Source: Candidatus Spongiisociaceae bacterium (GTDB taxonomy: Bacteria; Actinomycetota; Acidimicrobiia; Spongiisociales; Spongiisociaceae). Taken from it: a stretch of 64,000 bases of DNA. How positions within the stretch are numbered: the first letter of the stretch is position 1; each line of letters begins with the position of its first letter. The stretch covers positions 1,888,001 through 1,952,000 of the forward strand of contig CBDCOH010000002.1 in NCBI GenBank assembly GCA_965219685.1. Reading direction: 5' to 3'. Below are positions 13,878 to 48,669 of the stretch, piece by piece. Both the position numbers and the translations under genes were made by a program. The notes under the pieces are model-generated. The model was given only the letters and a program-made list of their open reading frames with translations. It was not told the DNA's origin and ran no database searches.

Positions 13878-14525
13878 TCAGCCCAAGGGCCACGATTCCT
13901 TGGTATAAGCCATGTCCCAGAACATATACTCGTAATTGACGCCGATCCGGAAACTCTCCAACATCTGACCTCGGCGCTCATCGGAGAGACCTTCCGAGTA
14001 TCTGTCCACGAAGTCCCGGTAGTCACGACAGAGCCTGTGATGATCCTCGCTCATGTAGAACTCCCACCAGTCAGCTTGGAAGTCCGTGAGTGGAGCCCCC
14101 TCGAGCTGGTACCCGATAGCGTCGTAACTCAGAGGACAGGGAAGGAACGATCCCAGGTACTCTACCGGATCGCGGGCGAACGCCAGATAGAAAAGATGCC
14201 GTGAATATGCGTGCAAGGTCGGAGCGACGGGGGCACCGAAAGTACCTCCCAGTTTCCTGAGCATGTCCTCCTGGTGGTAGTACTCGTCGAGGATGAGCTT
14301 GGTATTGCGAAGGAAGAAGTCCCTGATCTCGGCGTTCTGTGCCTTGGCGGCGACGATCGAGCGGCATCGCAACACTGCATCTATGTAGTGAACGTTCTGC
14401 TCGAAGTAGAACGCTAACTTGTCATTGCCCAGAGTCCCCGCCTTGAGTTCTTTCAGAAAGGGATGCTCATAGAGTTGGTCGAACAGTTGTGCCGTCTCCT
14501 CCATCATGTGTGCGGTCCAACTCAC
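13878..14525 (-). CDS. tenA: TenA-family protein, paralogue 1 (QN variant)
   Basis: HPFL..L.AGTL, FYFEQN, LPCP, YEYMFWDMAY. Confidence 0.88.
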   Translation of the reverse strand: MSWTAHMMEETAQLFDQLYEHPFLKELKAGTLGNDKLAFYFEQNVHYIDAVLRCRSIVAAKAQNAEIRDFFLRNTKLILDEYYHQEDMLRKLGGTFGAPVAPTLHAYSRHLFYLAFARDPVEYLGSFLPCPLSYDAIGYQLEGAPLTDFQADWWEFYMSEDHHRLCRDYRDFVDRYSEGLSDERRGQMLESFRIGVNYEYMFWDMAYTKESWPLG

Positions 14526-15877
14526 GGCGCCCCCCTCGACAACCTGCCCTCGACCAAGCGTGCGACAGCATCTCGGGCGCGTTGGGCAACTTCCGTCTCG
14601 TCAACGGTCTTGATGACGCGGTCTTCCATCACGATGCGTCCATCCACGATGACCGTGCGAACCATCCTGCCATTCGTGGCGAAGACCAGTCGCGGCAGAA
14701 CGTTGGCTCTGTATGCGGGCAGTCGGGTGTCGTAGAACTCACTTTCGGCATCAACCAGGATGACGTCCGCCTTGCGACCGGGCTCGATCACTCCTGCCTC
14801 GACTCCCAGAGCTCGCGCCCCGTTCACCGTTGCCATTCGCAGGACCTGCTCCGCCGGCATCAACTTCGGGTCAGCGTGGAGGGCTCGCTGTAGGTACGCC
14901 CCGGTGCGCATCACCTCGAAGATGTCCATGGTGTTGTTACCTTCGGTGGCGTCATGGCCGAGTCCGACGTTGACGCCGGCATCGAGAAGCTCACGTGCAG
15001 GTGCGATTCCCTCGCCCAGTTTCGAGTTCGCGGCCGGATTGTGGGATACATGCGTTCCCGTCTCCGCAATCATGCCGATGTCCTCGTCCGTCAGCCACAC
15101 ACAGTGGGCTGCCACTGTCGACGGTCCGAGCAGACCGTGGTCGTGGGCAACCCGGACCGGCCGCGACCCGAACTCCTGCATGCAGGTCTCGACTTCTTGC
15201 TGGGACTCGCTGAGGTGGATGTGCAGGCCGGTGTCCAGATCGGCCGCCATGCTCGCGGCGTCCCGCAGTATGTCTGCCGTCGCCAAGGGGATCCATTCGA
15301 CCCCTACGGCAACCCGGACCCGGTCGTCGGGCTCCCCTGCACACGCATGGAACGCAGCGCGGTTGTCCTCGAGCACGTCCAACCCGTCCTCGGGTCGCGC
15401 TACCAGGCTGCTGAGAGTGGCGCGGATGCCGACTGTCCTCGCGGCCCGGGCCAGGGACTCGACGTGTCTGAACATGTCGTTGACCGAGGTCGTGCCCCCC
15501 CGGAGGGCGCGGACATAGCTGTAAAGGGCGCCAGCGTAGGCGGTGTCCGGGTCGAGGTTCCGCATCATCGGATACCAGTGCCCGAAGAGTGCCTCCTCGA
15601 CCTCGAGGGACTCCGAATAGCCTCCCCGTTCGATGGAGGTGTGGAAGTGGAGGTCCACCAGACCGGGCATGACGAACAAGCCCGAGGCGTCGATCGTGCG
15701 GGCTGCACCCACCTCCGGCGCTGATCCCTCGCCCGTGGATACGATCCGATCTCCGCGGATGACCACATGGCCGCCGTGATATATGTCGGCGTGTTCGTTC
15801 AGGGTCACGACGGTTCCGTTCCGCACCACGATCGTGCTGGGCGGCGTACCGGCAGCCGGGACGGCGTCATCCGTCAT
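14522..15877 (-). CDS. Amidohydrolase, MTA/SAH/triazine deaminase-like
   Basis: MPGLVDLHFH, GGTT, HIHLSE, AAHCV, HNP..N.KL, GHD, GRKAD. Confidence 0.9.
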   Translation of the reverse strand: MTDDAVPAAGTPPSTIVVRNGTVVTLNEHADIYHGGHVVIRGDRIVSTGEGSAPEVGAARTIDASGLFVMPGLVDLHFHTSIERGGYSESLEVEEALFGHWYPMMRNLDPDTAYAGALYSYVRALRGGTTSVNDMFRHVESLARAARTVGIRATLSSLVARPEDGLDVLEDNRAAFHACAGEPDDRVRVAVGVEWIPLATADILRDAASMAADLDTGLHIHLSESQQEVETCMQEFGSRPVRVAHDHGLLGPSTVAAHCVWLTDEDIGMIAETGTHVSHNPAANSKLGEGIAPARELLDAGVNVGLGHDATEGNNTMDIFEVMRTGAYLQRALHADPKLMPAEQVLRMATVNGARALGVEAGVIEPGRKADVILVDAESEFYDTRLPAYRANVLPRLVFATNGRMVRTVIVDGRIVMEDRVIKTVDETEVAQRARDAVARLVEGRLSRGAP

Positions 15878-15880
15878 ATT

Positions 15881-16672
15881 TCATTCCTCTCGCAGATGGA
15901 GTTCGGCCTTGAGGGTGCGCTCGAGGCGAAGGAACTCGTCCGTGATCTCGATCCCCTTCTCACGTGGACGGTCCAGTTCTACGTCGTAGACAGCCTGGAT
16001 CCGCCCTGGACGGGGAGTCATCACGTAGACCCGATCCGACAGGTAGACAGCCTCGGCAACGTCGTGGGTGATGAACAGCACGGTGGTGCGGATCTCCTCC
16101 CAGACGCTCATCAGCCACTGCTGCAGACCCGTCCTCGTGTAGCTGTCCAACGCGCCGAACGGCTCATCGAGCAACATTATCGATCGTTTCTGAACCATCG
16201 TCCGTAGAAACGCCACCCGCTGTCGCATACCCCCTGAGAGTTGGTCCGGGTAGGCGTGGGCGAATTCGGACAGCCCGAAACGCTCGAGGTAGGGCTTGAC
16301 CCCGTCTCGAGCCGATTTCCGGGATAGGCCGTCCATCTCGAGTCCGAGGCTGGCGTTCCCCAGGACGGTCCGCCACGGAAAGAGGAGATCCTTCTGGAAC
16401 ATGTAGGCAATCTCGCCCAGGCGGCTACCGCCCGGAACACCGTCGAGTCGGATCTCGCCCGAGTCGTACCCCTCGAGGCCCGCAACGATGTTGAAGAGGG
16501 TGCTCTTGCCGCAGCCGCTCGGACCGATGAGGGTGACGAACTCGCCCGGCCTGACCACCATATCGACACCGTCGAGAGCCATTACGGGGCCCGATTTCGG
16601 GTGGAAGGTCTTGGTAAGACCCTCTATGACCAGGCCTCCCATTCCGGAGGCAGCCGACCCCGTCAACGTCAC
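15881..16672 (-). CDS. ABC ATP-binding protein (TauB/ThiZ-like)
   Basis: GPSGCGKST, LSGGMRQR, LLDEPFGALD; GTG start overlaps the permease stop. Confidence 0.92.
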   Translation of the reverse strand: MTLTGSAASGMGGLVIEGLTKTFHPKSGPVMALDGVDMVVRPGEFVTLIGPSGCGKSTLFNIVAGLEGYDSGEIRLDGVPGGSRLGEIAYMFQKDLLFPWRTVLGNASLGLEMDGLSRKSARDGVKPYLERFGLSEFAHAYPDQLSGGMRQRVAFLRTMVQKRSIMLLDEPFGALDSYTRTGLQQWLMSVWEEIRTTVLFITHDVAEAVYLSDRVYVMTPRPGRIQAVYDVELDRPREKGIEITDEFLRLERTLKAELHLREE

Positions 16673-17532
16673 CCCGCGTCTCCCTGAGTCTTGGGTCGGT
16701 ACCACGGCATGACCAATCGCTGGAGGATCACAACCCCACCGAACAGGAGAAGGGTCACGGCCGAAGTAACCGTCACGGCCCCGAACACGAGGTCGGTGCG
16801 CAAGGCGTTCTTCATGGTGAGCATGTAGATCCCGAGGCCTTCCACCGCACCGACGAACTGGGCGATCACGGCCGCTATCACCGCGAACGACATCGAGACC
16901 CGTATGCCGGTGAAGAGATGGGTGAGGGCACTCGGAAAGCGAACCTTCAGCAGAAGCCGGACGCGACCGGAGCCCATCGTCCGCAGGAGGTTCATGGCGT
17001 CCTCATCCGTCGAGGCAAGCCCCTGAGCGAGGCTGACAGCCACCGGGAAGAAGGTGTACATGGCGACGACGAACGCATGCGACGAGATTCCGAACCCGAA
17101 CCAGATCACCACGAGGGGCGCGATAGCGACGATCGGAAGGGTCTGGGAAACGACAATCACCGGATAGATACTCCGCCTGACCCAGCCGAAGCTGTCGACC
17201 ACGACACCGATCACGACTGCGAGCACCAGCGCGGACCCGAACCCGAGGAGCACCGTCTGGAGGGTTATCCAGGTGGCTCCCCACAGGTTCGAGCGATCAT
17301 CCCACATCGCATCGAGAACATCGGTGGGCGTCGGGAGCACCGCGGGCGAGATGTCCTGCCACCGGACGAACATCTCCCACGCGATCAGGAGAATCAGGAC
17401 GGTGACCAGAGGAGGCCAGGCCATGCGAGCGAGACCCGGTCCGGACGAGTCGGTCCCGCCCCGCGTCAGGTCCGGCGGGGATCCCCGCTCGCTTCCTAGA
17501 TAATGGGAGTTCTTCCTAGCTGACTTCAGCAC
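16669..17532 (-). CDS. ABC permease (TauC/ThiX-like)
   Basis: Six hydrophobic segments, QTLPIVAIAPL..WFGFG; start uncertain (GTG 17532 or ATG 17424). Confidence 0.85.
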   Translation of the reverse strand: MLKSARKNSHYLGSERGSPPDLTRGGTDSSGPGLARMAWPPLVTVLILLIAWEMFVRWQDISPAVLPTPTDVLDAMWDDRSNLWGATWITLQTVLLGFGSALVLAVVIGVVVDSFGWVRRSIYPVIVVSQTLPIVAIAPLVVIWFGFGISSHAFVVAMYTFFPVAVSLAQGLASTDEDAMNLLRTMGSGRVRLLLKVRFPSALTHLFTGIRVSMSFAVIAAVIAQFVGAVEGLGIYMLTMKNALRTDLVFGAVTVTSAVTLLLFGGVVILQRLVMPWYRPKTQGDAG

Positions 17533-17581
17533 GCTGCGGCCCACGATGGCCGGCTGTCCGACCCGGACCTGGCGGTAGGGA

Positions 17582-18832
17582 TCAGCAGCCGGGGAGGAGT
17601 TCGTTGGTTGCGTACACCGCGAACTCGGGTGCCGTAACCACCTGGCCGTCCTCATCCAACAGGACACCTGACCGTTCCAACAGGCCGCCTATGCCCGCGA
17701 AGTGCGACGGCTGCACGCAGCCCCATGTCCCGGCCTCGTTGAGATACTGAGATGCCCGGTATTGCGCGCTCTCCCGAACCAGTGCCTCGCTCTGCTGGAG
17801 ATCCGTCACCTCGCTGATCAGAATCTCGGCTGCTTGATCGGGATTCTCCGCGGCAAAGGTGTACGCGTCGCCCAAGGCTCTGAGGGCTCTCTCCAGTACA
17901 TCGGGTTGCTGGTCGATCATCTCGGAGCGGGCGATGAAGACCACATCCGGATATACGATCTCCGGTATGAAGTCGACGTAGGGGAAGAGGCGCAGTTCGG
18001 TACCGCGGAGTCGAGCGGCGATCTCGCTCCATCCCTGGAAGACGGCACTGAAATCGACCCGGTCCTCTATCAAAGCCTCGATGGCGCCGCCCTGCAGGAC
18101 GACCTCTTGGAAGTCGCCGGGGGTCGCAGCTCCGGCCGCCATGAGCATCTCGGTCACGAGGGGTCTCTCGTGCGGGGTCCCGTAGCCGCCGTACGACTCG
18201 GCAGCGTCGAGTTCAGCGGCAGTCTGGTAGGGCGAGTCAGCCGGCACGACCAAGGCCACGTTGTTCTCCTGGATGATGGCTGCGACGATCTTCAGCGAAG
18301 AACCAAGTGCCACCTCACGGAGCACGTCCGGCGGATAGGCAATGCCCAGGTCCGCGTCGCCCGCCTCGACCAAGACACCCGTGACGGTGAACGCCCACGG
18401 AACGACCTCCACATCCAGGTTCTCGCGCTCGAACAGGCCCATGGAGCGAGCGATGAAGATGCCCGCATGGTTGGTGTTCGGGATGAAGTCGAGAGCGATC
18501 CTGACTGTTGCCCGTTCCGGAGGAGCCGCGGTCGTATCCGGCGCGGCCGTCGTATCAGGCGCCGCAGTCGTGACAGGAGCAGCCGTCGTATCAGGCGCCG
18601 CAGTCGTGACAGGAGCAGCCGTCGTATCAGGCGCCGCAGTCGTGACAGGAGCAGCCGTCGTATCAGGCGCCGCAGTCGTGGCAGGAGCAGCGGTCGTGGC
18701 AGCGGATGTCGCTGCTCCATCGGACGATGGTTCGGAATCGCCGCACGCAGCCATAATCAACACCAGCGCGGAAAAATAGATCAGCAGTTTCCGGGCGACA
18801 CCCATCCGCCCCTGCGGCGACCTGTACCTCAT
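17582..18832 (-). CDS. ABC substrate-binding lipoprotein, NMT1/THI5 (ThiY-like)
   Basis: Lipobox MAAC; ALDFIPNTNHAG and GLFERENLDVE match the NMT1-type N-terminus; TTAAP linker. Confidence 0.85.
   Translation of the reverse strand: MRYRSPQGRMGVARKLLIYFSALVLIMAACGDSEPSSDGAATSAATTAAPATTAAPDTTAAPVTTAAPDTTAAPVTTAAPDTTAAPVTTAAPDTTAAPDTTAAPPERATVRIALDFIPNTNHAGIFIARSMGLFERENLDVEVVPWAFTVTGVLVEAGDADLGIAYPPDVLREVALGSSLKIVAAIIQENNVALVVPADSPYQTAAELDAAESYGGYGTPHERPLVTEMLMAAGAATPGDFQEVVLQGGAIEALIEDRVDFSAVFQGWSEIAARLRGTELRLFPYVDFIPEIVYPDVVFIARSEMIDQQPDVLERALRALGDAYTFAAENPDQAAEILISEVTDLQQSEALVRESAQYRASQYLNEAGTWGCVQPSHFAGIGGLLERSGVLLDEDGQVVTAPEFAVYATNELLPGC
18524..18700 (-). repeat. Coding tandem repeat, 36-bp unit (~4 copies, 18-bp subunit), encoding TTAAPD/TTAAPV
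   Basis: gccgtcgtatcaggcgccgcagtcgtgacaggagca repeated on the + strand. Confidence 0.9.
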
Positions 18833-19120
18833 CGTCTCTGCCCTCCCATTGAAACAGGCGGGTCCGAGCGGGCCCGCCGCTGAAACCTTGCAAAACACGG
18901 TATCAGAGATAGGTCGGCCAGGCCACCAGATCTTATGTCGAATGTTCGGACTGATCCACCGTTCGGCCAACCTCGAGCAACAACTCGGGCGGCGTTACAC
19001 AGGTACGGCTCGTAAACGCGGGCCAGACTCACATCTGGCAGAACGTCCCACCGAAGCCGGTCGACAATCCCCTGAACGGGATCCACCCGGTCCCGTCCTA
19101 TCTGCTTGCAGATGCTCGCG

Positions 19121-20122
19121 TCACCACCCCAGAACTGCGGCTGCGTGGTCGCCCATGATGCCCTCCAGCTTGTGCTGAGGGATCGGGTCGAGTCCCAGCG
19201 GCTCGGCATGGTCGTTCAGCGTTAGGAGCTTTTGCCGCAGGACCACGGGGTCGTACAGGAATCCCGGATAGTCCGAGCCGAAGAACAGCTTCTCCAGAGG
19301 AACGAAGAACGGTTCCGCCTTGTGCAGGAATGAGAACAGTTCCCTCGGGCTGAGCGCCGCGATCAGGTAGGAGAGTTCGCCGTAGAAGTTGGGATGCTTG
19401 GTGAGCAGGAATAGGGCTTCGTCCTGCCACGGAATACCCATGTGGGCGATGATGACGGTCAGATCCCTGAACTCCCGCCCGACGTCGTCGAGAAGCGCCG
19501 GCCTGCCGAGACCTAGCGAGGCGTCGATCCGGGTGGAACCGGCCTGGTGGAACATCACCGGGATCCCCAGGTCGAGAGCGCACTGGTAGACCGGGAATGC
19601 CAGTTCCCGGTCGTCCGGCGACCAGTGCTGGTACATCGGGTAGAGCTTCACACCCGACAGTCCCAGCTCCTGAACCGCCCTGGTGAGCTCCTCCACTGCC
19701 GCCTTCGGTCCCTGATAGGCGGGGTTGACCGACGCGAAACCGACCAGGGTCTCCGGATCCTGGCGCACCAGACCGGCTATGTAGTCGTTGCACTTCTCAG
19801 GATCGGGTGGGCCTTCGACGCCGCTGATGCCCGTAGGATCGACCGTTCCTATGAGCCGACCATCGAGCCACTGGGGGGAGACCGAGAGCAGGACGATCTT
19901 GTCGAACCCCGGGTGATCTCGTTTGGACTCGGCACCTCCGATAACCGGCCACCCTTTCCGGGAGAACCCGCTGCTCTCCCACTCCTCCTCCGTGGGCGTC
20001 CGGTGCGACGGCACGGAGCCGGCGCTGCGATAGATGCACAGGGACCCTTCCCGCCCGTACCTCACGGTGAAGTCGGGATCGGCCGCCAGTGCAAGCACGT
20101 GGGTGTGCATGTCGATCTGCAT
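19121..20122 (-). CDS. Amidohydrolase_2-family protein
   Basis: IDMHTH, GVKLYP, VMFHQ, IIAHMG, FFGSDYP; GAGGGAGG RBS. Confidence 0.9.
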   Translation of the reverse strand: MQIDMHTHVLALAADPDFTVRYGREGSLCIYRSAGSVPSHRTPTEEEWESSGFSRKGWPVIGGAESKRDHPGFDKIVLLSVSPQWLDGRLIGTVDPTGISGVEGPPDPEKCNDYIAGLVRQDPETLVGFASVNPAYQGPKAAVEELTRAVQELGLSGVKLYPMYQHWSPDDRELAFPVYQCALDLGIPVMFHQAGSTRIDASLGLGRPALLDDVGREFRDLTVIIAHMGIPWQDEALFLLTKHPNFYGELSYLIAALSPRELFSFLHKAEPFFVPLEKLFFGSDYPGFLYDPVVLRQKLLTLNDHAEPLGLDPIPQHKLEGIMGDHAAAVLGW

Positions 20123-20332
20123 TTGGCGCCCTCCCTCGTTACCGACTGCGGCGTCGCGAACCCTACTCGGGCCTGGTTCCCACCCGCCGTATCGAACCAC
20201 CGCTTGCCCGGACACCGCGTCCGGGTCCGAAGTAAGCTCCAAGGGCGGACCGGACCGGCGGGTTCGGGGAGAGAGACATCCTGGACTTCTTTTAGGCCGG
20301 TGCGTATGGGCACGAGCCGAAAGGACGGGCAG

Positions 20333-21931
20333 ATGTCACGATATCTAGTCGTGGGCAATCCGGTGGTCACGCTTGCCGACGAAGCGTTTATCACCGACGG
20401 TGCGCTCATCGTCGAAGGCAAGCAGATCGTCGAGTCCGGACCTCGGGAAGAACTCGAAGCCAAGGGTCCGTTCGACCGCGTCCTCGGCTCACCGGACCAC
20501 TTCGTGATGCCCGGGTTCGTCGCCTCCCACTATCACTCCGAGTCGGCGCTCGGCCCCGGACTCTGGGAGATGCTGTTCGAACGCGCCAATATCTACGTGC
20601 ATCCGGTCTTCAAACCGATGGACGAGGAGATCATGTACAAGGCGATCCTCGTCACCCTCATGACCGCGGTCCGGGGAGGGATCACGACCACCGTCGACGC
20701 CTTCTACGGCCGGCCCGGCCCGAAGAACTTCGGGATGGACAACGCCCTGCAGGCGTACGATGACCTGGGCATGCGTACCGCGCTGGGGATTACTCTGCGC
20801 GATGAGAACCTCTATGTGCACGAGGCGAACGAGGACTTCCTGAACCGGCTCCCCGATCAGCTGGCCGAAGAGGTACGCAACTCTCCGATGGGATACGCCC
20901 TCCCGGCGGACGACGTGATTGCTGCATACGAGAATGCCGCAGGCACCTGGGATGGCCGGGACGACCGGCTGCGGGTGCTGCTGGCCCCGGACTGGACTCC
21001 GGCGGTCTCCGACGACCTCTACCGCCGGTGCCGGGCCGTCGCCACCGAGTACGACACCGGGATCATGACCCACTGCCTCGAGACCCGGGCGGAGATGCAG
21101 TACAACATCAAGCGCTACGGCGTCACCGCCATGCAGCGGCTCCACGACATCGGGCTTCTCGGGCCCGACGTGTCCCTCTCCCACTTCGTCTGGGCCACCG
21201 ACCGCGACATCGAGATCCTGGCCGACAGCGGGGCAGTGGCTGCAAACAACCCCGGCTCGAACCTGAGGCTGAGCACCGGGGTGTGCCGGGTACGCGACAT
21301 CCTCGACGCAGGCGGAGGGCTGGCGTTCGGAACCGACGCCATCTCCTTCTCCGAGCGTGACGACATGCTCCAGGAGGTCCGGCTCGGCCTCTACCTCCAA
21401 CGCCTACCCCGCGGCCCGGAGCCCGAGCACGGCCGTCTGGACTCGGAAGCCGTCCTGAGAGCCGCCGCCACCTACGGAGCACGCGCGGCGCGCGCCGAGG
21501 ACCGCATCGGCAGCCTGGCGGTGGGAAAGGACGCCGACCTCCTCATCCTCGACCGCAAGCGGGTCTTCGACAGACCGGCGCGGTTCTACGTGAGCCCGGT
21601 GCTCGACGTGATACTGGACCGGGCCGACGGGACCGACATCGAGACCGTGCTCATTGCCGGCAAGGTCGTCCTCGACAACGGCGTGATCACCACGCTGAAC
21701 GAGCAGAAGATCCGGGACGAGTACAACGAGGAGATCGAGAGGGGGCTGTTCAATCTCGAGGAGCCTTGGGCCCGATGGGCCGAGTTGGCGTTCGAGGTCG
21801 AGCCCTACCTCTTCGACTTCTACCGTCCCTGGGCGGAGGAACCGATGGTCCCCGGATACGAGTACAACACGACCACCGGTCCTGTCGGCTTCGACGGCGG
21901 CCGACGGATCGGAGGAGGAAACAGCCGATGA
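20333..21931 (+). CDS. Amidohydrolase, heterocycle deaminase-like
   Basis: MPGFVASHYH, HCLET, SHFVW, NPGSNLRL, FGTD, GKDADL. Confidence 0.88.
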   Translation: MSRYLVVGNPVVTLADEAFITDGALIVEGKQIVESGPREELEAKGPFDRVLGSPDHFVMPGFVASHYHSESALGPGLWEMLFERANIYVHPVFKPMDEEIMYKAILVTLMTAVRGGITTTVDAFYGRPGPKNFGMDNALQAYDDLGMRTALGITLRDENLYVHEANEDFLNRLPDQLAEEVRNSPMGYALPADDVIAAYENAAGTWDGRDDRLRVLLAPDWTPAVSDDLYRRCRAVATEYDTGIMTHCLETRAEMQYNIKRYGVTAMQRLHDIGLLGPDVSLSHFVWATDRDIEILADSGAVAANNPGSNLRLSTGVCRVRDILDAGGGLAFGTDAISFSERDDMLQEVRLGLYLQRLPRGPEPEHGRLDSEAVLRAAATYGARAARAEDRIGSLAVGKDADLLILDRKRVFDRPARFYVSPVLDVILDRADGTDIETVLIAGKVVLDNGVITTLNEQKIRDEYNEEIERGLFNLEEPWARWAELAFEVEPYLFDFYRPWAEEPMVPGYEYNTTTGPVGFDGGRRIGGGNSR

Positions 21932-22596: not shown

Positions 22597-22606
22597 GTTC
22601 CCACGG

Positions 22607-27106: not shown

Positions 27107-27169
27107 GTCATGGGCTCCTTCACGATCCGAACATCCCGTACTCTTACCACATAGAGATGGAGGATCAGG

Positions 27170-29636: not shown

Positions 29637-29713
29637 CCCCGACCCTTCATGTTCCCGGTACACCCGACGCACATGATGCCAAGGCCCCCATGAGGGTTGG
29701 CCGTAGCGACCGG

Positions 29714-32347: not shown

Positions 32348-32368
32348 CGCCCGGCCGGGGGCGTTTTT
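32348..32368 (+). terminator. Possible intrinsic terminator
   Basis: cgccc-ggccgg-gggcg followed by ttttt, between convergent genes. Confidence 0.35.
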
Positions 32369-32483
32369 CGCGTTCTCGGGTCCCCGGGGGCTAGCTGGCG
32401 CGATGGTCGGTACGTTCCGGGTATCGATTACGAATCCAGTAACCAGGACACAGGGTCGCGGGCGCCGGGGCGGAGCCGGGGCG

Positions 32484-33245: not shown

Positions 33246-33326
33246 CCGAGTCCTCCCGTTTCTTCCCGTGGACGCGCAACCTACCAGCTACGATTCACAT
33301 CGCGAGCAAGAGAAGGAGAGCGTCCC

Positions 33327-33989: not shown

Positions 33990-34120
33990 TCCATCTAGTG
34001 GCGCTCTCGCGTGACGCGCCTGAGAGCCGATGGGTATGATCCAACAACACGGAAGGTTTCGGCGACCCTGTTCGAACGGCTGAGGCCTGAGCTTCGAATC
34101 GCCCCTAAGAGGGAGGCACA

Positions 34121-35989: not shown

Positions 35990-36009
35990 TCCGAGCGGCT
36001 CTCCGGTCA

Positions 36010-36048
36010 TGTGACCGCGGCGCGTTGACCCATCACGCCGCGGTCACA
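36010..36048 (+). terminator. Hairpin after the binding-protein gene (mRNA stabiliser or attenuator)
   Basis: 13-bp perfect stem tgtgaccgcggcg / cgccgcggtcaca. Confidence 0.6.
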
Positions 36049-36093
36049 ACCTTCAGGCTCTGGCCGGGCGATCCGTTGTAGGACTGATCGGGG

Positions 36094-37110
36094 ATGGACT
36101 CCGGGCTCTCCCGCCAACTGTTCACCCGGCTCCTGCTGGTAGCGCCGGTAGTCTTCGGCGTCGTGACCCTCACCTTCCTGGTGGCGAGGGTGTTCGCGCC
36201 CGATCCGGTAGCGCTGTACATTCCGCCGCAGGCAGACGAGGAACTCCGTCACAAGATCAGAGTCGAGTTGGGCTTGGACAAGTCGATCCCTGAGCAGTAC
36301 GGGGTCTTCCTGGCCGACCTGGCCCAAGGCGACCTAGGTGAATCGACCATCACCGGCCGGCCCGTCACGAGCGACCTGTGGGACCGGCTCCCCGCGACCG
36401 TGGAGCTTGCCCTGGTGTCCCTCACCTTTGCCATCGTGATCGGAGTCCCTTTGGGCGTGCTGGCAGGGGCGAGGCGCGACGGTCCTTTGGACTTCTCGGT
36501 GCGCGGCATCACCCTCATCGGGATGGCGCTTCCGTCGTTCTGGCTCGGTCTGGTGCTCATCCTGATCTTCTTCGTCATCCTCGGCTGGCTGCCCGGGCCT
36601 GTAGGCCGGCTGCCCCTCGGTGCGGAAGCGCCCGAGAAGATCACCGGGCTGTATACGCTCGACAGCCTCTTTCGGGGGGACTTGACGCTCTGGTGGGAGT
36701 CGGTACGCCATCTCATACTCCCCGGCTTGACGCTTGGCGTGGTCATCGTGGCCCCCATCACAAGGGTGGCTCGCGCCTCGATGGTGGATGTGATGCGCTC
36801 CGAGTACATCCGTACGCCCAAGGCGTTGGGCATCCGCAAGCAGGTCATCTACTTCCGTTACGCCCTGAAGAACGCCCTGCTTCCGATCGTCACCATGATC
36901 GGAACGATCGTAGGTTTCGTCTTCACCGGCGCCGTGCTGGTGGAAGCGGTCTTCAACTGGCCCGGAATGGGCAAGTATGGGCTCGATGCCATCCTCAAGT
37001 CGGACTTCACCGCCCTCCAGGGCTTCGTCGTGGTGGCATCGGTCACTTACATCGTGGCGTTCTTCCTGGTCGACATCGTTTACATGCTGATCGACCCGAG
37101 GACGAGATGA
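36094..37110 (+). CDS. ABC permease (DppB-like)
   Basis: LGLDK, GDLG.S, RLPATVEL, PSFWLG, LKNALLP, VEAVFNWPGMG, IDPR. Confidence 0.93.
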   Translation: MDSGLSRQLFTRLLLVAPVVFGVVTLTFLVARVFAPDPVALYIPPQADEELRHKIRVELGLDKSIPEQYGVFLADLAQGDLGESTITGRPVTSDLWDRLPATVELALVSLTFAIVIGVPLGVLAGARRDGPLDFSVRGITLIGMALPSFWLGLVLILIFFVILGWLPGPVGRLPLGAEAPEKITGLYTLDSLFRGDLTLWWESVRHLILPGLTLGVVIVAPITRVARASMVDVMRSEYIRTPKALGIRKQVIYFRYALKNALLPIVTMIGTIVGFVFTGAVLVEAVFNWPGMGKYGLDAILKSDFTALQGFVVVASVTYIVAFFLVDIVYMLIDPRTR

Positions 37111-37120
37111 GGAGGAAGTC

Positions 37121-38026
37121 GTGATCGATATGACAGCCGACCGAGCTCCGGAAGGCGGCTCGCTCGACGTCATCGCTCCGGGACGCACCAGGTGGGGGAA
37201 GATCAGGTACGTGTTCGGCCAGAGCAAGAGCCTGACGGCCGGAACCATCCTTGTGGGAATCTTCATCCTGATTGCGCTTTTCGCCAAGTTCATCACCACC
37301 CACGATCCCAGCGCGGTACTGGTGGGGCCGCCGCTCACGGGGGTCAGCGCCGAGCACTGGTTCGGAACCGACAAGGTGGGCTCGGACGTGTTCTCCAAGA
37401 CGATCGCGGCCACCGCTCTCGATCTGCGGATCACCGCTTCGGCGGTGCTGGCGGCTCTCGTGGCCGGGGTCGTGCTCGGCACGGTCGCCGGCTATTACGC
37501 AGGGGTGGTGGACCTCATCCTGCTCCGGCTCCTGGAAATCCTCCAGTCCATTCCCACGCTGCTGCTGGCGATGATGGTGGTGGTGGCCATCGGGCCCGGG
37601 GAACTCAACGTGGTGGTGGTGATGGCTTTCATCGGGATGCCGTACTACGCGCGCCTCGTGCGCGCCGAGATCCTCACCAAGCGCACGTGGGAGTTCGCCG
37701 AGGCCGCCCGTATGGTCGGCGGATCGGCGATCCGGGTCGCCTTCCGGCATCTGCTGCCCAACAGCCTCTCGCCCGTACTCGCGTACGCCTCGGTCAATGC
37801 AGCGTGGGTGGTTCTGGTGACCGCCGCCCTGGGCTTCCTGGGTATCGGCATCGAACCGGGCACCGCCGAGTGGGGCTCGATGATCGCTCGCGGCCAGACG
37901 GAGATCATCACCGGCGAGTGGTGGGTCTCGGTGTTTCCCGGGCTGTTCGTCCTCATCCTCACCACCGGGTTCTACCTGCTCGGCGACGGCGTCCGGGACG
38001 TGATGGACCCGAGGTCCCGCAAGTGA
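37121..38026 (+). CDS. ABC permease (DppC-like)
   Basis: HWFGTD..G.D, ARLVRA, HLLPN, LGFLGIG, EWG.MI, LGDGVRD..DP. Confidence 0.93.
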   Translation: MIDMTADRAPEGGSLDVIAPGRTRWGKIRYVFGQSKSLTAGTILVGIFILIALFAKFITTHDPSAVLVGPPLTGVSAEHWFGTDKVGSDVFSKTIAATALDLRITASAVLAALVAGVVLGTVAGYYAGVVDLILLRLLEILQSIPTLLLAMMVVVAIGPGELNVVVVMAFIGMPYYARLVRAEILTKRTWEFAEAARMVGGSAIRVAFRHLLPNSLSPVLAYASVNAAWVVLVTAALGFLGIGIEPGTAEWGSMIARGQTEIITGEWWVSVFPGLFVLILTTGFYLLGDGVRDVMDPRSRK

Positions 38027-38042
38027 GAGGTCGAGAGCGCTG

Positions 38043-39071
38043 ATGGCCGCCAACCTCGTGGAGATACAGAACCTCGAAGGCTTCTTCGAGACCATCGGCG
38101 GCGACGTCCGCGCCCTGAACGGAGTCAACGTGGCGATCGAGGAGGGAAAGGTCACTGGTCTGGTGGGCGAGACCGGCTCGGGGAAGACCATGACCGCCCT
38201 CAACGTCCCCCGCCTGATGCCGGAGAACTTCCGCTACGTGTCCGGCCGGGTCATGTTCCGGGGCGAGGACGTCCTCACCTGGCCGGAGGAGAGGATGGAA
38301 CTCTTCCGCGGTGACGGCGTGGGTATCGCCTTCCAGGATCCCAAGGCCGCCCTCAACCCGGTGTTCACGGTCGGTGAGCAACTCGGCCGGGCGCTGCGAA
38401 CCCACACGGAGGCCACCAAGACCGAGGCCAGGCGGGCGGCGCTCGGGATCCTGGCACGGGTCAGGATCGCGGACCCGGGGCGCACCATCCGCCAGTACGC
38501 CCATGAACTGAGCGGCGGCATGGCGCAGCGGGTCATGGTCGCGCTGGCCGTCATCCACCCCCCCAAGCTCCTGATCCTGGACGAGCCGACCACCGGCCTC
38601 GACGTGACCGTGCAGGCCGAGATCATCTCCATGCTGAGAGACCTGGTGGAGGATATGGGCCTCACGGTGCTGCTCATCACCCACGACCTCGGGGTGGTGG
38701 GCGAGCTGAGTGACAACGTTGCGGTCATGTACGCCGGCCGGACGATGGAGTTCGGTGACATCAGCCAGATCTTCGAGCGACCCGCCAACCCCTACACGAG
38801 GGAACTCCTGCGGTCGACGGAGAGCGTCGAGGGCGGAGTGGGCGACCTGTACAGCATCCCCGGCGCTCCTCCCGACCTCCGGAACCTGCCTGACGGGTGC
38901 TTCTTCCAGGATCGGTGCCCGTCGGCGGAGGACATCTGCCGGACCGTTCCTCCGGTGGTCGAGGTCGAGCCGGGCCATATATCGATGTGCCACTTCGCCG
39001 AGCGCTACCACGCCATGCCGGGGCCGCTCCACATCACGCAGGACGGCACGGGTACCGGAGGTCACGGGTGA
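38043..39071 (+). CDS. ABC ATP-binding protein (DppD-like)
   Basis: GETGSGKT, LSGGMAQR, DEPTTGLD, NPYT, GCFF..RC tail. Confidence 0.93.
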   Translation: MAANLVEIQNLEGFFETIGGDVRALNGVNVAIEEGKVTGLVGETGSGKTMTALNVPRLMPENFRYVSGRVMFRGEDVLTWPEERMELFRGDGVGIAFQDPKAALNPVFTVGEQLGRALRTHTEATKTEARRAALGILARVRIADPGRTIRQYAHELSGGMAQRVMVALAVIHPPKLLILDEPTTGLDVTVQAEIISMLRDLVEDMGLTVLLITHDLGVVGELSDNVAVMYAGRTMEFGDISQIFERPANPYTRELLRSTESVEGGVGDLYSIPGAPPDLRNLPDGCFFQDRCPSAEDICRTVPPVVEVEPGHISMCHFAERYHAMPGPLHITQDGTGTGGHG

Positions 39072-39898
39072 CACCCGACCCCGGCGACTCCCTCTTGGCG
39101 GTGCGTGGTCTCACCAAGCACTTCCACCGGGGCGTCTGGCCGCGCCGCCAGACGATCGTCGCCGTCGACAACATCGACCTCCACGTGGCAAGGGGCGAGA
39201 GCGTCGGGCTCGTCGGCGAGAGCGGATCCGGCAAGACGACCACGGCTCGCACGATCCTGCGGCTCGTCGACCCGACGGCCGGTGAGATCAGCTTCGATGG
39301 AATACGCGTCGACCAGACCCCCCGCGCCAAGGTTCGCCGCCTCTACAGGAACATGCAGATGGTGTTCCAGGACCCGAACTCCTCCCTCAACCCGCGGATG
39401 ACAGTGCGGGAGATCGTCACCGAGCCCCTGAAGCTCCACCTCGAGATGTCGAACCATGAGCAGGAGGAGCGAGCGAACGAGATCATGACCATGGTGGGCA
39501 TGCGGGGATTCCACCTAGATCGTTATCCCGGCCAGTTGAGCGGAGGCCAGCGCCAACGGGTAGGAGTCGGTCGGGCCATAGCCACGCATCCCAAGCTGGT
39601 CTTTCTCGATGAACCTACCTCCTCGCTGGACGTGTCGGTCCGGGGCCAGGTGATGCAACTTCTCGTCGACCTGCAGCGGAAGCTGAACATGTCCTACGTG
39701 CTCATCAGCCACGACCTGGGCGTGGTACGGCAGCTCAGCCGGCGCGTACTGGTGATGTTCGAGGGCAAGATCGTCGAGGAAGGCCCCACCCGGCAGGTGT
39801 TCGAGAACCCCAGGGACGACTACACCAAGAGACTGCTGGCGGCCATCCCCTCCATGGACGGCTACCGCCGCCGGAGACGGCAAGGAGGGGCCCGATGA
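39068..39898 (+). CDS. ABC ATP-binding protein (DppF-like)
   Basis: GESGSGKTT, LSGGQRQR, DEPTSSLD; GTG start overlaps the previous stop. Confidence 0.92.
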   Translation: MTPDPGDSLLAVRGLTKHFHRGVWPRRQTIVAVDNIDLHVARGESVGLVGESGSGKTTTARTILRLVDPTAGEISFDGIRVDQTPRAKVRRLYRNMQMVFQDPNSSLNPRMTVREIVTEPLKLHLEMSNHEQEERANEIMTMVGMRGFHLDRYPGQLSGGQRQRVGVGRAIATHPKLVFLDEPTSSLDVSVRGQVMQLLVDLQRKLNMSYVLISHDLGVVRQLSRRVLVMFEGKIVEEGPTRQVFENPRDDYTKRLLAAIPSMDGYRRRRRQGGAR

Positions 39899-40860
39899 GC
39901 CGTGTCGTGGACGCCCACATCCACATCTTCCGGGACCCCTCCTGGAGCCCCGAGTCCCAGAAGGCGATGCCGATCTCCTGGGTGAACCAGGTCCGGTGGT
40001 TCGACATGGACCCCGAGGACGCCGAGCGCCGCTACCGGGAGTCGGTGGACGCCTGCTGGGATCCCGACGGATCCAAGACCATCGCCCGGATGGACGAGGC
40101 GGGCGTGGATGTCTCGGTGACCATGCCGATGGACAGGGGGCTCCTCACGGGCGACGAGGGCGTGGTGCCCTACGAGGAGAAGAACGAGGGCTACTACGAG
40201 CTCACAAGGATGTGGCCGGGACGTATCTACTCCTTCTGCGGGGTCGATCCGCGCCGGCCCCAGGCCGCCAAGTTCCTCGAGAAGGCGATCGCCGACTGGG
40301 GGTTCCTTGGACTGAAGCTCTACCCCACCGCCGGCTTCTACCCGGACGACGAGATCGTCCACCCGCTCTACGAGGTGTGCCGTGAGTACGACGTCCCGGT
40401 CCTGCTGCACCAGGGCCACTCGGGGGGTCGCCTCAAGAGCAAGTACGGCCACCCCATGTACGTGGACTCGGCGGCCGCGGACTTCCCCGAGGTGAGGTTC
40501 ATCCTTGGTCATGGAGCCAGGTTCGAGACGTGGGCGAAGGAGGCCATGAGCGTGGCCATCTACAAGACGAACGTCCACCTCGAGATCAGCCTCTGGCAGC
40601 ACTGGGCCAGCGTCGACGACCTGGTGAGGACCTTCGTCTGGATCCGTGATCGCATCGGCATCGACCGGTTGCTGTTCGGGAGCGACATGACCAACGTCGA
40701 GGTGTCCATGAGCCTCAAGGAGTGGGCAGACGTGATCCGGATGCTGCCCGAGTGGGCCAAGCAACTCGGGTTCCGCCTCAGCCGCGAAGAGATCGCCCTG
40801 GTTCTCGGAGGCAACGCGGAACGCGTGTACCGGATCCCGCCCGTTGAGCAAGACGCTTAG
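39895..40860 (+). CDS. Amidohydrolase_2-family protein, paralogue of 12010-12966
   Basis: VVDAHIH; shared blocks VLLHQGHS, KSKYGHP, VAIYKTNVHL, SLWQHW, RMLPEWAKQLG. Confidence 0.9.
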   Translation: MSRVVDAHIHIFRDPSWSPESQKAMPISWVNQVRWFDMDPEDAERRYRESVDACWDPDGSKTIARMDEAGVDVSVTMPMDRGLLTGDEGVVPYEEKNEGYYELTRMWPGRIYSFCGVDPRRPQAAKFLEKAIADWGFLGLKLYPTAGFYPDDEIVHPLYEVCREYDVPVLLHQGHSGGRLKSKYGHPMYVDSAAADFPEVRFILGHGARFETWAKEAMSVAIYKTNVHLEISLWQHWASVDDLVRTFVWIRDRIGIDRLLFGSDMTNVEVSMSLKEWADVIRMLPEWAKQLGFRLSREEIALVLGGNAERVYRIPPVEQDA

Positions 40861-40897
40861 TGCGCATGCGATCATTCGAAGCGATCAAGGAGACCCG

Positions 40898-41545
40898 ATG
40901 AGTTGGACGCAGCACATGTACGAGCAGGCCAAGGACATGTGGGAGCGGATCTACGAACACCCCTTCCTGCAAGATCTCGCGGCCGGAACCCTGTCCGACG
41001 AGCGCTTGGCCTTCTACTTCGAACAGAACACCCACTACATCAACAACGTGGTCAAGTGCCGGTCCATCGCCACTGCCAAGGCCCACAACAACGAGATACG
41101 GGACTTCTTCCTGAGCCGCACCGCGATGGTGGTGGACGAGATGCACCACCAGGAGGACATGCTGCGGCGGGTCGGCGGCCAGCCCGGTGCCCGCATCGCC
41201 CCCACCTGCCATGCCTACACCCGCCACATCCTCAACCTGGTGTGGACCAAGGACCCGGTCGAGTATCTCGGGTCGTTCATGCCGTGCCCGTGGACCTACG
41301 ACGAGATCGGCATCCAACTCCGCAGCGCCGACCTTCAGGGCGCCTCCGCCGAGTGGTGGGAGTTCTACATGAGCGAGGAGCACAACGAACTGGTGGCGAA
41401 CTACCGGGTGTTCGTGGACAAGTACTCCGAGGGACTGTCGGACGAGCGGCGTCAGCAGATGCTGGACAACTTCATCATCAGCACCAACTACGAGTACCGG
41501 TTCTGGGACATGGCCTACAACCGGGAACAATGGCCCCTCGGCTAG
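40898..41545 (+). CDS. tenA: TenA-family protein, paralogue 4 (QN variant), closest to paralogue 1
   Basis: YEHPFL, FYFEQN, MPCPWTY, YEYRFWDMAY; AAGGAG RBS. Confidence 0.88.
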   Translation: MSWTQHMYEQAKDMWERIYEHPFLQDLAAGTLSDERLAFYFEQNTHYINNVVKCRSIATAKAHNNEIRDFFLSRTAMVVDEMHHQEDMLRRVGGQPGARIAPTCHAYTRHILNLVWTKDPVEYLGSFMPCPWTYDEIGIQLRSADLQGASAEWWEFYMSEEHNELVANYRVFVDKYSEGLSDERRQQMLDNFIISTNYEYRFWDMAYNREQWPLG

Positions 41546-41558
41546 ATGGGCTGAGCCC

Positions 41559-43118
41559 GTGAGCCGCCTGCTCGTCGTCGGGGACCCGGTCGTAGCGCTG
41601 GCCGGCGGCCGCAGCGACATCCTCGACGACGGGGCACTGATCGTCGAGGGCCGGAAGGTCACCGCGCTGGGCCGCCGCGAGGATCTCGAGAAGCGGGGCC
41701 CGTTCGACCGGGTGGTCGGCTCGCGCAGGCACCTCGTGATGCCGGGCTTCATCAACGGGCACTTCCACTCGATGGGGGCGGGCTCCCCCGGCCTCTTCCA
41801 GTACGTCTTCGAGCGGATGAACACCCGCATCTTCCGCCGCGCCATGAGCGACGACGACATCAGGACCATCATCCTCGTGGCGCTGATGCGGGCTGTCAGA
41901 GGCGGGCAGACGGGCGCGGTGGACTTCAACTACGGCAACCCCACGTTGGTCGACTTCGGCAACCCGCCCATCCTGGACGCCTACCGAACCATCGGGATGC
42001 GGGTGGCCCTCGGCATGGTCACCCGGGACGAGAACATCTACATCCATGCCCCCGACGACGTGTTCCTCTCGTCGTTGCCGGCGGAACTGGCCCGCCAGGT
42101 CCGGGAATCGACGATGGGGTATGCCTGGCCCACCGACGACGTGGTCGCCTCATACCGCCGGGTCCACGCCGAATGGGACGGCTACGACGGGCGCCTCCGG
42201 GTGATCCTCGCCCCGGACTGGACACCGGCCTGCTCCGACGACCTCTACCTGCTGAACAGGCGCCTGGCCGACGAGTACGACACCGGCATCACCACCCACC
42301 TCCTCGAGACCCGCTCCGAGATGCTGTTCAACCTCGAGACCTACGGCAAGACCGCGATGCGGCGGCTGGCCGACATCGGTGTGCTTGGACCCGACGTCAG
42401 TTGCGCCCACTTCGTCTGGGCCACCGACGAGGACATCCGCATCCTGGCCGACACCGGCGCGGTGGCGGTCAACAACCCGGGCTCCAACCTGCGTCTGAGC
42501 ACGGGAATCGCCCGGGCCCGCGACATCCTCGACTCGGGAGCCGCGCTGGCGTTCGGAACCGACTCGATCTCCTTCTCGGACATCGAGGACTTCTTCCAGG
42601 AACTTCGCCTCGCCATGTACCTTCAGCGAATCCCCGCCGAGTTGGAGATCGGGCGCTTGGACTCGCTCGAGGTGCTGCGCCGGGCTGCCTCCTCCGGCGC
42701 CCGGGCCATCCGCCAGGAGGCGAAGCTGGGATCCCTCGCCGAGGGTAAGGAGGCGGATCTGCTCGTCCTCAGCAAGGAACGGTTGCTATGGCCGGAACCC
42801 AAATACGCTTCGGTCCCGATCCTCGACGTTCTGCTGGACAGGGCCACAGGTTCCGACCTGGAGACGGTGCTGATTGCAGGACGGATCGTCCTCGACGAAG
42901 GCCGTTTCACCACCGTCGACGAGCAGCAGGTCCTGGCGGACTTCGCCGAGGCCGGCAGGGAACGGCTTTGGGTGTCGTCCGCGCAGGGTCGCCGAGAGGC
43001 GCAATTGGCCGCCCATGTTGAGCCGTACGTCCTCGACTTCTACCGCGAGTGGGCGTTGAGGCCGCTGACCCCTGCGTACACCTACAACGCGCTAGTACCC
43101 CCGCAGGAGGTGAGGTAG
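41559..43118 (+). CDS. Amidohydrolase, heterocycle deaminase-like, paralogue of 20333-21931
   Basis: MPGFINGHFH, LAPDWTPA, HLLET, NPGSNLRLSTG, FGTD. Confidence 0.88.
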   Translation: MSRLLVVGDPVVALAGGRSDILDDGALIVEGRKVTALGRREDLEKRGPFDRVVGSRRHLVMPGFINGHFHSMGAGSPGLFQYVFERMNTRIFRRAMSDDDIRTIILVALMRAVRGGQTGAVDFNYGNPTLVDFGNPPILDAYRTIGMRVALGMVTRDENIYIHAPDDVFLSSLPAELARQVRESTMGYAWPTDDVVASYRRVHAEWDGYDGRLRVILAPDWTPACSDDLYLLNRRLADEYDTGITTHLLETRSEMLFNLETYGKTAMRRLADIGVLGPDVSCAHFVWATDEDIRILADTGAVAVNNPGSNLRLSTGIARARDILDSGAALAFGTDSISFSDIEDFFQELRLAMYLQRIPAELEIGRLDSLEVLRRAASSGARAIRQEAKLGSLAEGKEADLLVLSKERLLWPEPKYASVPILDVLLDRATGSDLETVLIAGRIVLDEGRFTTVDEQQVLADFAEAGRERLWVSSAQGRREAQLAAHVEPYVLDFYREWALRPLTPAYTYNALVPPQEVR

Positions 43119-43120
43119 AG

Positions 43121-48657: not shown

Positions 48658-48669
48658 GTCCTACTCCTA

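Follow-up and report, generated by a model that had tools for sequence, protein, structure and literature searches.

The window, that is, the whole stretch of 64,000 nucleotides analysed here (C2:1888001-1952000 of a Candidatus Spongiisociaceae bacterium, genome G000), encodes four paralogues of the TenA/thiaminase II family, designated TenA1 to TenA4 (Table 1). Amidohydrolases of the COG0402 type (Deam1 to Deam3), two ATP-binding cassette (ABC) importers, Amidohydro_2 proteins and several putative oxidoreductases are encoded around them. The source genome measures 4.42 Mb in two contigs and is an estimated 96.7% complete; a whole-genome search with PF03070 (TENA_THI-4) gave five matched stretches, which fall in these four genes, the only PF03070 genes of the genome. 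All four pass this model (84, 140.6, 59.2 and 103.2 bits; cut-off 22) and share 29-62% pairwise identity. The cut-off (130) of the salvage_TenA equivalog model TIGR04306 is reached by one of the four copies, TenA2 (163.6 bits), the scores of TenA1, TenA3 and TenA4 being 89.2, 79 and 125 bits.

An earlier note on this DNA had read the canonical QD motif as QN in all four copies, with the catalytic Cys and the ExxF motif intact, and the translations confirm both observations. In phmmer searches against solved structures, the Asn aligns with the 'QD' Asp of the B. subtilis TenA chains 1tyh, 1to9, 1yaf and 2qcx, and likewise with that of TenA from H. pylori (2rd3, 3ibx) and S. aureus (4fn6); counting along a Bacillus copy (40+4) places the variant column at residue 44. 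The Asp44 equivalent is replaced by Asn in 4/4 window copies, at a position that contacts the ligand, as evident from P. furiosus TenA, where the equivalent Asp hydrogen-bonds the amino groups of hydroxymethylpyrimidine (HMP) phosphate (excerpts of PMC5623701). The equivalents of Cys135, Glu205, Tyr112, Tyr139 and Phe208 are kept in all four. Bacillus TenA/thiaminase II structures 1yaf, 1yak and 2qcx served for comparison; the model of TenA4, the copy that was modelled (predicted local distance difference test, pLDDT, 95.8), is closest to B. subtilis TenA 2qcx_B, with a template-modelling (TM) score of 0.94 and a root-mean-square deviation of 1.6 Å.

The ratio of nonsynonymous to synonymous substitution rates (dN/dS) against orthologues is 0.03-0.12 across the four genes, and about 0.04-0.07 for TenA1 and TenA3; the four genes are under purifying selection. 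They are assigned to an Asn-type branch that has diverged within the Cys-dependent thiaminase II (TenA) family.

Three of the four TenA genes are, as judged from two 4-base overlaps and one 13-base gap, operonic with COG0402-type deaminases; these neighbours, described in the earlier note as deaminase-type amidohydrolases, are Amidohydro_1 proteins (PF01979, 133-222 bits). The best NCBIfam matches of Deam1-3 are methylthioadenosine/S-adenosylhomocysteine (MTA/SAH), 5'-deoxyadenosine and 8-oxoguanine deaminases and TRZ/ATZ hydrolases, and the score for every characterised NCBIfam equivalog (MTA/SAH, 8-oxoguanine and guanine deaminase, TRZ/ATZ, HutF) stays under its cut-off, for instance 352 against 609 for Deam1, the closest solved structure of which is the MTA/SAH deaminase 4f0r (E 5.8e-54). 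Deam2 and Deam3 are 56% identical from residue 1, Deam1 and Deam3 29%; the HxH, HxxE, His and Asp motifs, taken with the meaning they have in COG0402-type amidohydrolases, are visible in the pairwise alignments. The family of Deam3 is widespread and uncharacterised; at E<=1e-20 it counts 519 proteins. Immediately outside the left edge of the window (G000:C2:1885944-1887485; L130:17842-19386) stands a gene for a fourth representative of the Deam2/3 family, which shares 60-61% identity with Deam3. An Amidohydro_2 gene that follows it runs into the window (1-480), and a Deam1-like gene (47%) stands 8 kb further left. At least five COG0402 genes thus occur within about 75 kb.

Asparagine at residue 44 in the TenA family

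A full HMMER search with TenA4 returned 1605 cluster representatives at E<=0.001, and the residue-44 column was read in the nearest 150, where it holds Asp in 130, Asn in 17, and Ser, His and a gap in one each. A metagenome sample screened with a generic C-terminal TenA pattern yielded 80 loci, which together contain 83 TenA places; Asn occurs at 4/83. Asn is thus rare in both samples.

A first tree of 145 rows, with nine fragments or fusions left out by length, contains one supported clade of 25 that holds 17 of the 19 Asn rows. A 64-row tree resolves three Asn groupings. Clade A, with Asn in 16/18 rows, includes TenA1, TenA3 and TenA4; clade B (6/6) corresponds to the operon copy of an actinobacterial family, here called f62; and clade C is a grade containing TenA2, basal to an Asp clade. 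The tree needs at least six Asp/Asn state changes, five of them forced by supported branches. In the 64-row alignment, the Asp/Asn column is the sole column that splits the groups (Asn 28/28 versus Asp 33/33), while the equivalents of Gln43, Tyr112, Cys135, Tyr139 and Glu205 are invariant in both, and that of Phe208 is nearly so (27 of the 28 Asn-type rows). Such fixation of the residue argues for selection on it. Asn is rare among TenA proteins and grouped in a few old clades; because of the clean column split, the invariant or nearly invariant catalytic columns and the dN/dS values, it is read as an ancient trait of whole clades that selection maintains while the catalytic scaffold stays intact, and not as four chance events.

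Thiamine genes and the operon of family f62

Profile searches of the two-contig genome gave no match to ThiC, ThiE or ThiN, and no thiamine pyrophosphate (TPP) riboswitch (RF00059) was found in it; within the window, no Rfam family reaches its gathering score. ThiG is represented by weak partial stretches only, and a thiamine pyrophosphokinase and a ThiD-type kinase are present. The earlier note had seen neither thiD nor thiE nor a TPP riboswitch: the lack of ThiE and of the riboswitch extends to the genome, and the claim on thiD fails outside the window. ThiD-type kinases can serve vitamin B6.

Across the 29 genomes of the GTDB family, several of them single-contig, ThiE is found in 0/29 and ThiC in 0/29. 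TenA4 homologues, i.e., Asn-type TenA, occur in 13 of the 29 in one to four copies, comprising 8/8 genomes of the window's genus, 5/12 of a second genus and 0/9 of five others. PF03070 in 300 other genomes of the class gives weak matches only, in 16 genomes (best 47.7 bits). Since ThiC and ThiE occur in none of the 29, and G000 retains the pyrophosphokinase and the ThiD-type kinase, the family looks thiamine-auxotrophic. The missing ThiE and ThiC, the patchy TenA4 homologues and the weak PF03070 matches across the class make the TenA genes an accessory island in a thiamine-auxotrophic lineage, in which an HMP product has no known outlet. The same absence of ThiC and ThiE from the genome and the family, together with the lack of ThiN and of a TPP riboswitch and the presence of the pyrophosphokinase, makes ordinary salvage unlikely, in agreement with the earlier note.

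When Deam3 was searched against 400 genomes of the phylum, matches were obtained in just two other genomes, both of f62. There, Deam2-like (55%), Deam1-like (48-50%) and AH2_b-like (66-68%) genes lie a few kb from a TenA with YFTQNVLYL, in which Cys and Glu are kept. The 11-gene run (Table 1) is present through its Deam2-like gene in 5/5 genomes inspected; the Amidohydro_2 gene is present in 4/5, on the same strand in two and divergent in two. The M20 peptidase of the run carries generic M20, tripeptidase or DapE-like labels by NCBIfam and homologue names, which speaks neither for nor against a YlmB-like deformylase. About 12 kb from the run, an Asp-type TenA (FLEQD) stands beside ThiZ/ThiX/ThiY-like genes in 5/5 genomes, 4/5 of which encode ThiE; a sixth f62 genome has the Asp-type locus only, and such TenAs occur in 13 of 101 sampled f62 genomes. 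Family f62 is an unrelated lineage in which Asp-type TenA stands in a transport context and Asn-type TenA in an oxidation/deamination context.

Other Asn-type loci share parts of this neighbourhood. In L019, a DppA gene (44% identical to that of the window) adjoins two Asn-type TenA, with glyoxalase, CoA-transferase, GntR, F420-dependent luciferase-like oxidoreductase (LLM) and Zn-dependent alcohol dehydrogenase (Zn-ADH) genes nearby; its CoA ligases and B12 mutase give no pyrimidine-specific clue. An LLM and a CoA-transferase flank the Asn-type TenA of L105, and an LLM and a Zn-ADH lie near that of L034. A COG0402 gene occurs within 5 kb of 1/92 Asp-type places, 10/22 close-kin Asn places and 0/4 distant Asn places (two of these with very short flanks), and at least two catabolic-type neighbour families occur within 8 kb of 12/17 Asn versus 0/14 Asp places. 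A TPP riboswitch was found in none of 15 loci scanned, Asp-type included, and is therefore no discriminator of Asp- and Asn-type loci.

Syntenic units and neighbouring genes

Comparison with relatives defines three syntenic units. Unit 1 comprises ThiY-ThiX-ThiZ-Deam1-TenA1 and the convergent DUF1989 gene, and is located 2.7 Mb from the other units in G312. Its five-gene order is kept in L117 and L122, and in L033 without the binding protein; the DUF1989 gene remains convergent to TenA1 in these three at 82-87% identity. Its product is related to urea-amidolyase-associated proteins and to the trimethylamine N-oxide demethylase domain. By family match, the importer is ThiXYZ-like; the only solved relatives of its binding protein are 4nmy (E 3.4e-37) and the formylaminopyrimidine (FAMP)-binding ThiY 3ix1 (E 1.1e-15).

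In unit 2, AH2_b is divergent from Deam2-TenA2, and these are followed by the hydantoinase subunits, the F420 oxidoreductase, the Zn-ADHs and the molybdenum (Mo)-enzyme large subunit. The hydantoinase A and B genes come after TenA2 in 3/5 contexts (G000, L116 and L121; not in L118 and L119). The weak solved relatives of AH2_b are 3irs, ACMSD and salicylate decarboxylase. The first Zn-ADH is nearest to the NDMA-dependent and class III ADH models, under their cut-offs. A role of the LLM as a RutA-like ring-opening monooxygenase is ruled out, as the protein scores 243.7 against the F420 model cut-off of 166.9 and 52.9 against the RutA cut-off of 498.

Unit 3 consists of a short-chain dehydrogenase (SDR) divergent from TenA3-DppABCDF-AH2_c-TenA4-Deam3, followed by genes for a metallo-beta-lactamase-fold hydrolase (MBL) and a SnoaL-like protein, and is kept even in L017, a metagenome-assembled genome of 70% identity. 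The Dpp importer lies between TenA3 and TenA4 in L008-L015, L017 and L018, and MBL and SnoaL are syntenic 3' of Deam3 in L008-L015. The closest solved relative of AH2_c is the uncharacterised 3irs (E 1.4e-10). GntR/FCD genes adjoin Asn-type TenA also in L128 and L019, the likeness between the regulators of the window and of L128 being limited to the DNA-binding part.

Table 1. Features of the window and of the f62 run
Feature	Position	Strand	Remarks
Amidase-signature enzyme	9750-11423	-	PF01425 334.7 bits; kept near the TenA2 module in G312, G311, G308
Short-chain dehydrogenase SDR_a	11195-12013	+	PF13561/PF00106; syntenic in G312, G311
Amidohydro_2 AH2_a	12001-12966	+	PF04909 111 bits
DUF1989 protein	13157-13813	+	PF09347 126.9 bits; convergent with TenA1
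TenA1, Asn-type	13878-14525	-	motif QNVHY
Deam1, COG0402-type amidohydrolase	14522-15877	-	PF01979 222 bits; 4-base overlap with TenA1
ThiZ/ThiX/ThiY-like ABC importer	15881-18970	-	ATPase 15881-16705 (PF00005), permease 16669-17667 (PF00528), binding protein 17582-18970 (PF09084, 132 bits)
Amidohydro_2 AH2_b	19121-20242	-	PF04909 103.9 bits; divergent from Deam2
Deam2, 532-aa COG0402-type amidohydrolase	20333-21931	+	PF01979 156.7 bits; 4-base overlap with TenA2
TenA2, Asn-type	21928-22596	+	motif QNIVF
Hydantoinase/oxoprolinase A and B	22607-26264	+	A 22607-24640 (PF01968/PF05378), B 24633-26264 (PF02538)
F420-dependent luciferase-like oxidoreductase (LLM)	26210-27196	-	PF00296; TIGR03619 243.7 bits, cut-off 166.9
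Two Zn-dependent alcohol dehydrogenases	27170-28273, 28530-29636	+	PF08240/PF00107
Molybdopterin-enzyme large subunit (xanthine dehydrogenase/aldehyde oxidase/carbon monoxide dehydrogenase family)	29690-32059	+	PF02738, PF20256, PF01315; under all NCBIfam cut-offs
Short-chain dehydrogenase SDR_b	32484-33245	-	PF13561/PF00106; divergent from TenA3; syntenic in L008-L018
TenA3, Asn-type	33327-33989	+	motif QNLQY
DppABCDF-type ABC importer	34121-39898	+	PF00496, PF00528 x2, PF00005 x2
Amidohydro_2 AH2_c	39895-40860	+	PF04909 120.3 bits
TenA4, Asn-type	40898-41545	+	motif QNTHY
Deam3, 519-aa COG0402-type amidohydrolase	41559-43118	+	PF01979 132.6 bits; 13 bases from TenA4
Metallo-beta-lactamase-fold hydrolase (MBL)	43049-43918	+	PF00753; weak lactonase-type NCBIfam matches
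SnoaL-like protein	43915-44295	+	PF12680
CMP/dCMP-type zinc deaminase	44477-45172	+	PF00383 49.3 bits
GntR/FCD regulator	45444-46184	-	PF00392, PF07729
f62 11-gene run	L128:7803-19580 (G625:C3); also L129, L132, L134, L136		CoA-transferase III, M20 peptidase, F420-LLM, glyoxalase, GntR, TenA(Asn), Zn-ADH, aldehyde dehydrogenase, Deam1-like, Deam2-like, Amidohydro_2

Further right, four products are encoded at 47389-51873: a class-III aminotransferase and a second luciferase-like oxidoreductase, both of which keep synteny with the TenA4 module in L008, as well as an M24 protein of the creatinase/prolidase kind and an SDR. Between 53692 and 58579, the genes of a second taurine/nitrate-type ABC system (ATPase and two permeases) are interspersed with those of a PuuE-like protein of the polysaccharide-deacetylase fold (302.8 bits, under the 424.6 cut-off) and of a creatinase/prolidase-like M24 protein. 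The regions 51950-53413 and 62383-63840 encode a 487-aa protein without a Pfam or NCBIfam match and a 485-aa SMP-30/gluconolactonase-like protein, the latter slightly under the ScyD/ScyE cut-off (74.8 versus 80). Upstream of the cluster, a 766-aa sulfatase and an AAA/DUF4143 ATPase are encoded on the minus strand (5649-9633).

A candidate breakdown route and its alternatives

Asn-type TenA is tentatively read here as an enzyme of the breakdown, and not the salvage, of pyrimidines with a leaving group on the C5 methylene, its Asn fitting a deaminated 4-oxo ring. Confidence in this reading falls somewhat short of even, the substrate, the order of steps and the catalytic assignments all being inferred. 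The substrates would be thiamine-pyrimidine-type compounds, e.g., amino-HMP, formylamino-HMP and thiamine-like molecules, and may be taken up by the ThiXYZ-like and Dpp-like ABC systems. The operonic COG0402 deaminase would convert the ring 4-amino group to 4-oxo. The Cys of TenA(Asn) would then add at C6, followed by expulsion of the C5-methylene substituent and addition of water to give a 5-hydroxymethyl-4-oxopyrimidine, with the Asn amide replacing Asp as the reader of the ring 4-substituent. A Zn-ADH and an aldehyde oxidiser (in the window the Mo enzyme, in f62 the aldehyde dehydrogenase) would yield the 5-carboxylate, to be removed or hydrolysed by an Amidohydro_2 enzyme, which could act as its decarboxylase; reduction and hydrolysis by the F420 oxidoreductase, the amidase and, where present, the hydantoinase may complete the route.

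Much of this route had been proposed in the earlier note, the observations of which are confirmed and the interpretation of which is partly supported. TenA, alcohol/aldehyde oxidation, deamination and Amidohydro_2 recur as the f62 operon around an Asn-type TenA; the hydantoinase has proved optional (3/5 contexts), the Mo subunit lacks an adjacent partner, and the Amidohydro_2 proteins show no likeness specific to isoorotate decarboxylase. Two new lines strengthen the interpretation, namely the family-wide loss of a salvage outlet and the split of Asp and Asn contexts in f62.

Known systems resemble the cluster in part. Bacillus TenA reportedly acts in salvage together with ThiXYZ and the YlmB deformylase, as described by Jenkins in 2007. 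The window proteins share its fold (TM 0.94 of TenA4 to 2qcx), its Cys, Glu, Tyr and Phe set and, beside TenA1, a ThiY-type importer; they differ in the Asn for Asp44, in a COG0402 deaminase rather than an M20 deformylase as neighbour, in the 3/4 copies under TIGR04306, and in a genome without ThiE, ThiC, ThiN or a TPP riboswitch to use the product or regulate it. Thymidylate synthase has Asn at the position equivalent to Asp179 of T4 dCMP hydroxymethylase, and its N-to-D mutant reportedly accepts dCMP. In the T4 enzyme, according to excerpts of PMC6400193, Cys attacks C6 of the pyrimidine and Asp179 determines the preference for dCMP over dUMP, so that Cys at C6, C5-methylene chemistry and an Asp reading a 4-amino ring are shared features. 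These enzymes are of unrelated fold, folate-dependent and active on nucleotides, and the analogy is one of mechanism only; by it, the Asn of TenA would suit a 4-oxo ring produced by the operonic aromatic-amine deaminase.

Fungi convert thymine to uracil by thymine 7-hydroxylase and isoorotate decarboxylase, an Amidohydro_2 enzyme. The proposed passage from C5 hydroxymethyl through formyl to carboxyl, followed by its removal from a 4-oxopyrimidine, is similar, and an Amidohydro_2 gene is in the cluster; the candidate oxidants here are an ADH with an aldehyde dehydrogenase (ALDH) or a Mo enzyme rather than a 2-oxoglutarate dioxygenase. In s-triazine degradation, AtzA/AtzB/TriA-type amidohydrolases act in series. 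The cluster likewise has several COG0402-type enzymes that may strip one N-heterocycle serially, and TRZ/ATZ models are among the best Deam1-3 matches, although under their cut-offs; the triazine pathway has no TenA partner. Finally, PCA, the 4-amino acid formed from HMP by oxidation of its alcohol to the acid, is a known microbial thiamine product of a fate described as unknown in excerpts of PMC11223231. ADH and ALDH next to TenA would yield a PCA-type acid, whereas the genes that make or consume PCA are not known, and its link to the cluster is conjectural.

A number of points weigh against breakdown through 4-oxo intermediates. What is shown consists of gene content, residue states, synteny, purifying selection and the missing salvage outlet. 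Asn could still act as hydrogen-bond acceptor towards a 4-amino group, and classical activity may therefore persist; TenA2 is above the NCBI thiaminase II equivalog cut-off, TenA1 has a salvage-type (ThiY) importer as its neighbour, and the ThiD-type HMP kinase about 1 Mb away passes TIGR00097 (249.8 versus 204.95). The Deam2/3 family is far commoner than Asn-type TenA, and the Asn-type pair of L019 has no deaminase within 8 kb. Just two phylogenetically independent Asn/Asp contrasts have known context, too few for a statistical claim on the neighbour association, and the f62 Asp-type loci, which likewise have no TPP riboswitch, are called salvage loci on account of their ThiXYZ neighbours and of ThiE in the genomes. 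The Mo-enzyme large subunit stands alone: none of the small open reading frames around its 3' end fits an Fe-S or FAD subunit family, so any electron partners of this subunit are encoded at another site. At E<=0.01, the solved relatives of AH2_b and AH2_c are weak and non-specific (3irs, ACMSD, LigW, LigJ, salicylate decarboxylase) and include no isoorotate decarboxylase.

It is conceivable that the cluster is catabolic and TenA(Asn) keeps the classical 4-amino aminohydrolase or thiaminase activity, with the deaminases acting later, e.g., on the 5-carboxylate, and Asn tuning catalysis at unchanged specificity. The canonical state of all other active-site residues, the TIGR04306 score of TenA2 and the superposition of TenA4 on B. 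subtilis TenA agree with this, as do the 4-amino nature of PCA (PMC11223231, excerpts) and the f62 order of TenA, ADH and ALDH, then deaminases. The fixation of Asn in three old clades, as against Asp in the others, points the other way, and so do the strongly lowered activity of B. subtilis TenA D44A (PMC5623701, excerpts) and the fall in kcat of about 3600-fold of the analogous T4 D179N on the amino substrate (PMC6400193, excerpts); such retention of classical activity is considered unlikely, though far from negligible. Slightly less likely still is that TenA chemistry has been reused on a new ring, the substrates being other N-heterocycles, from the host or the environment, that carry their leaving group on a methylene, such as 5-substituted uracils or cytosines, pyridine or imidazole alkaloids or creatinine-like rings. 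The sub-threshold equivalog scores of three copies, the Dpp-type rather than ThiY-type importer flanked by two copies, and a window rich in N-heterocycle genes (hydantoinase A/B, two creatinase-like M24, PuuE-like deacetylase, CMP-type deaminase and the COG0402 group) are in its favour, and four paralogues with two importers would seem many for trace vitamin fragments. Canonical TenA ring-binding residues are, however, all kept except Asp44, and TenA1 adjoins a binding protein whose solved relatives are confined to 4nmy and the FAMP-binding ThiY.

Clearance of damaged or antivitamin thiamine of the oxythiamine kind, a hazard for an auxotroph in which thiamine is imported and then pyrophosphorylated, would account for a pyrophosphokinase in a genome in which ThiC, ThiE and ThiN were not found, and Asn would fit a 4-oxo ring. 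It is nevertheless improbable: the adjacent deaminase would make 4-oxo forms rather than remove them, ADH, ALDH and Amidohydro_2 in the same operons point to full degradation, and four copies with two importers would exceed a housekeeping need. Two further roles are highly improbable for these proteins, namely ordinary salvage of the thiamine pyrimidine and non-catalytic regulation in the manner of LysR2, a regulator of the TenA family. Pfam and NCBIfam do assign the TenA family, a ThiD-type kinase is present and a TenA-family regulator is on record (PMC12817078, excerpts), but ThiE and ThiC were found in none of the 29 family genomes and neither ThiN nor a TPP riboswitch in the genome, and purifying selection maintains the catalytic residues in genes operonic with enzymes.

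A literature search outside subscription journals and supplements found no paper on Asn-type TenA or on a TenA-deaminase-ADH-ALDH operon, though Asn variants might already be visible in supplementary TenA alignments of PMC10277260 and PMC12817078, and nothing on pyrithiamine deaminase, oxythiamine and thiamine catabolism. Beyond the breakdown reading of the enzyme itself, Asn-type TenA may be the marker of a bacterial route, so far undescribed, by which the pyrimidine moiety of vitamin B1 is mineralised via 4-oxo intermediates, by aminopyrimidine deaminase, TenA(Asn), alcohol/aldehyde oxidation to a pyrimidine-5-carboxylate, decarboxylation and ring breakdown; this wider proposal is possible but doubtful.

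Current annotation labels TenA homologues across the board as thiaminase II or salvage enzymes, and if the Asn branch has another substrate and a catabolic role, part of this labelling is wrong. The operons give concrete candidate genes for thiamine pyrimidine breakdown, testable with purified proteins. If the wider proposal is true, it would assign genes to the so far unknown fate of PCA and other thiamine oxidation products and to the orphan aminopyrimidine (pyrithiamine-type) deaminase activity, and one residue, Asp or Asn, would predict salvage or catabolic TenA function. A thiamine auxotroph would then keep an elaborate system for vitamin fragments, for purposes other than making the vitamin.

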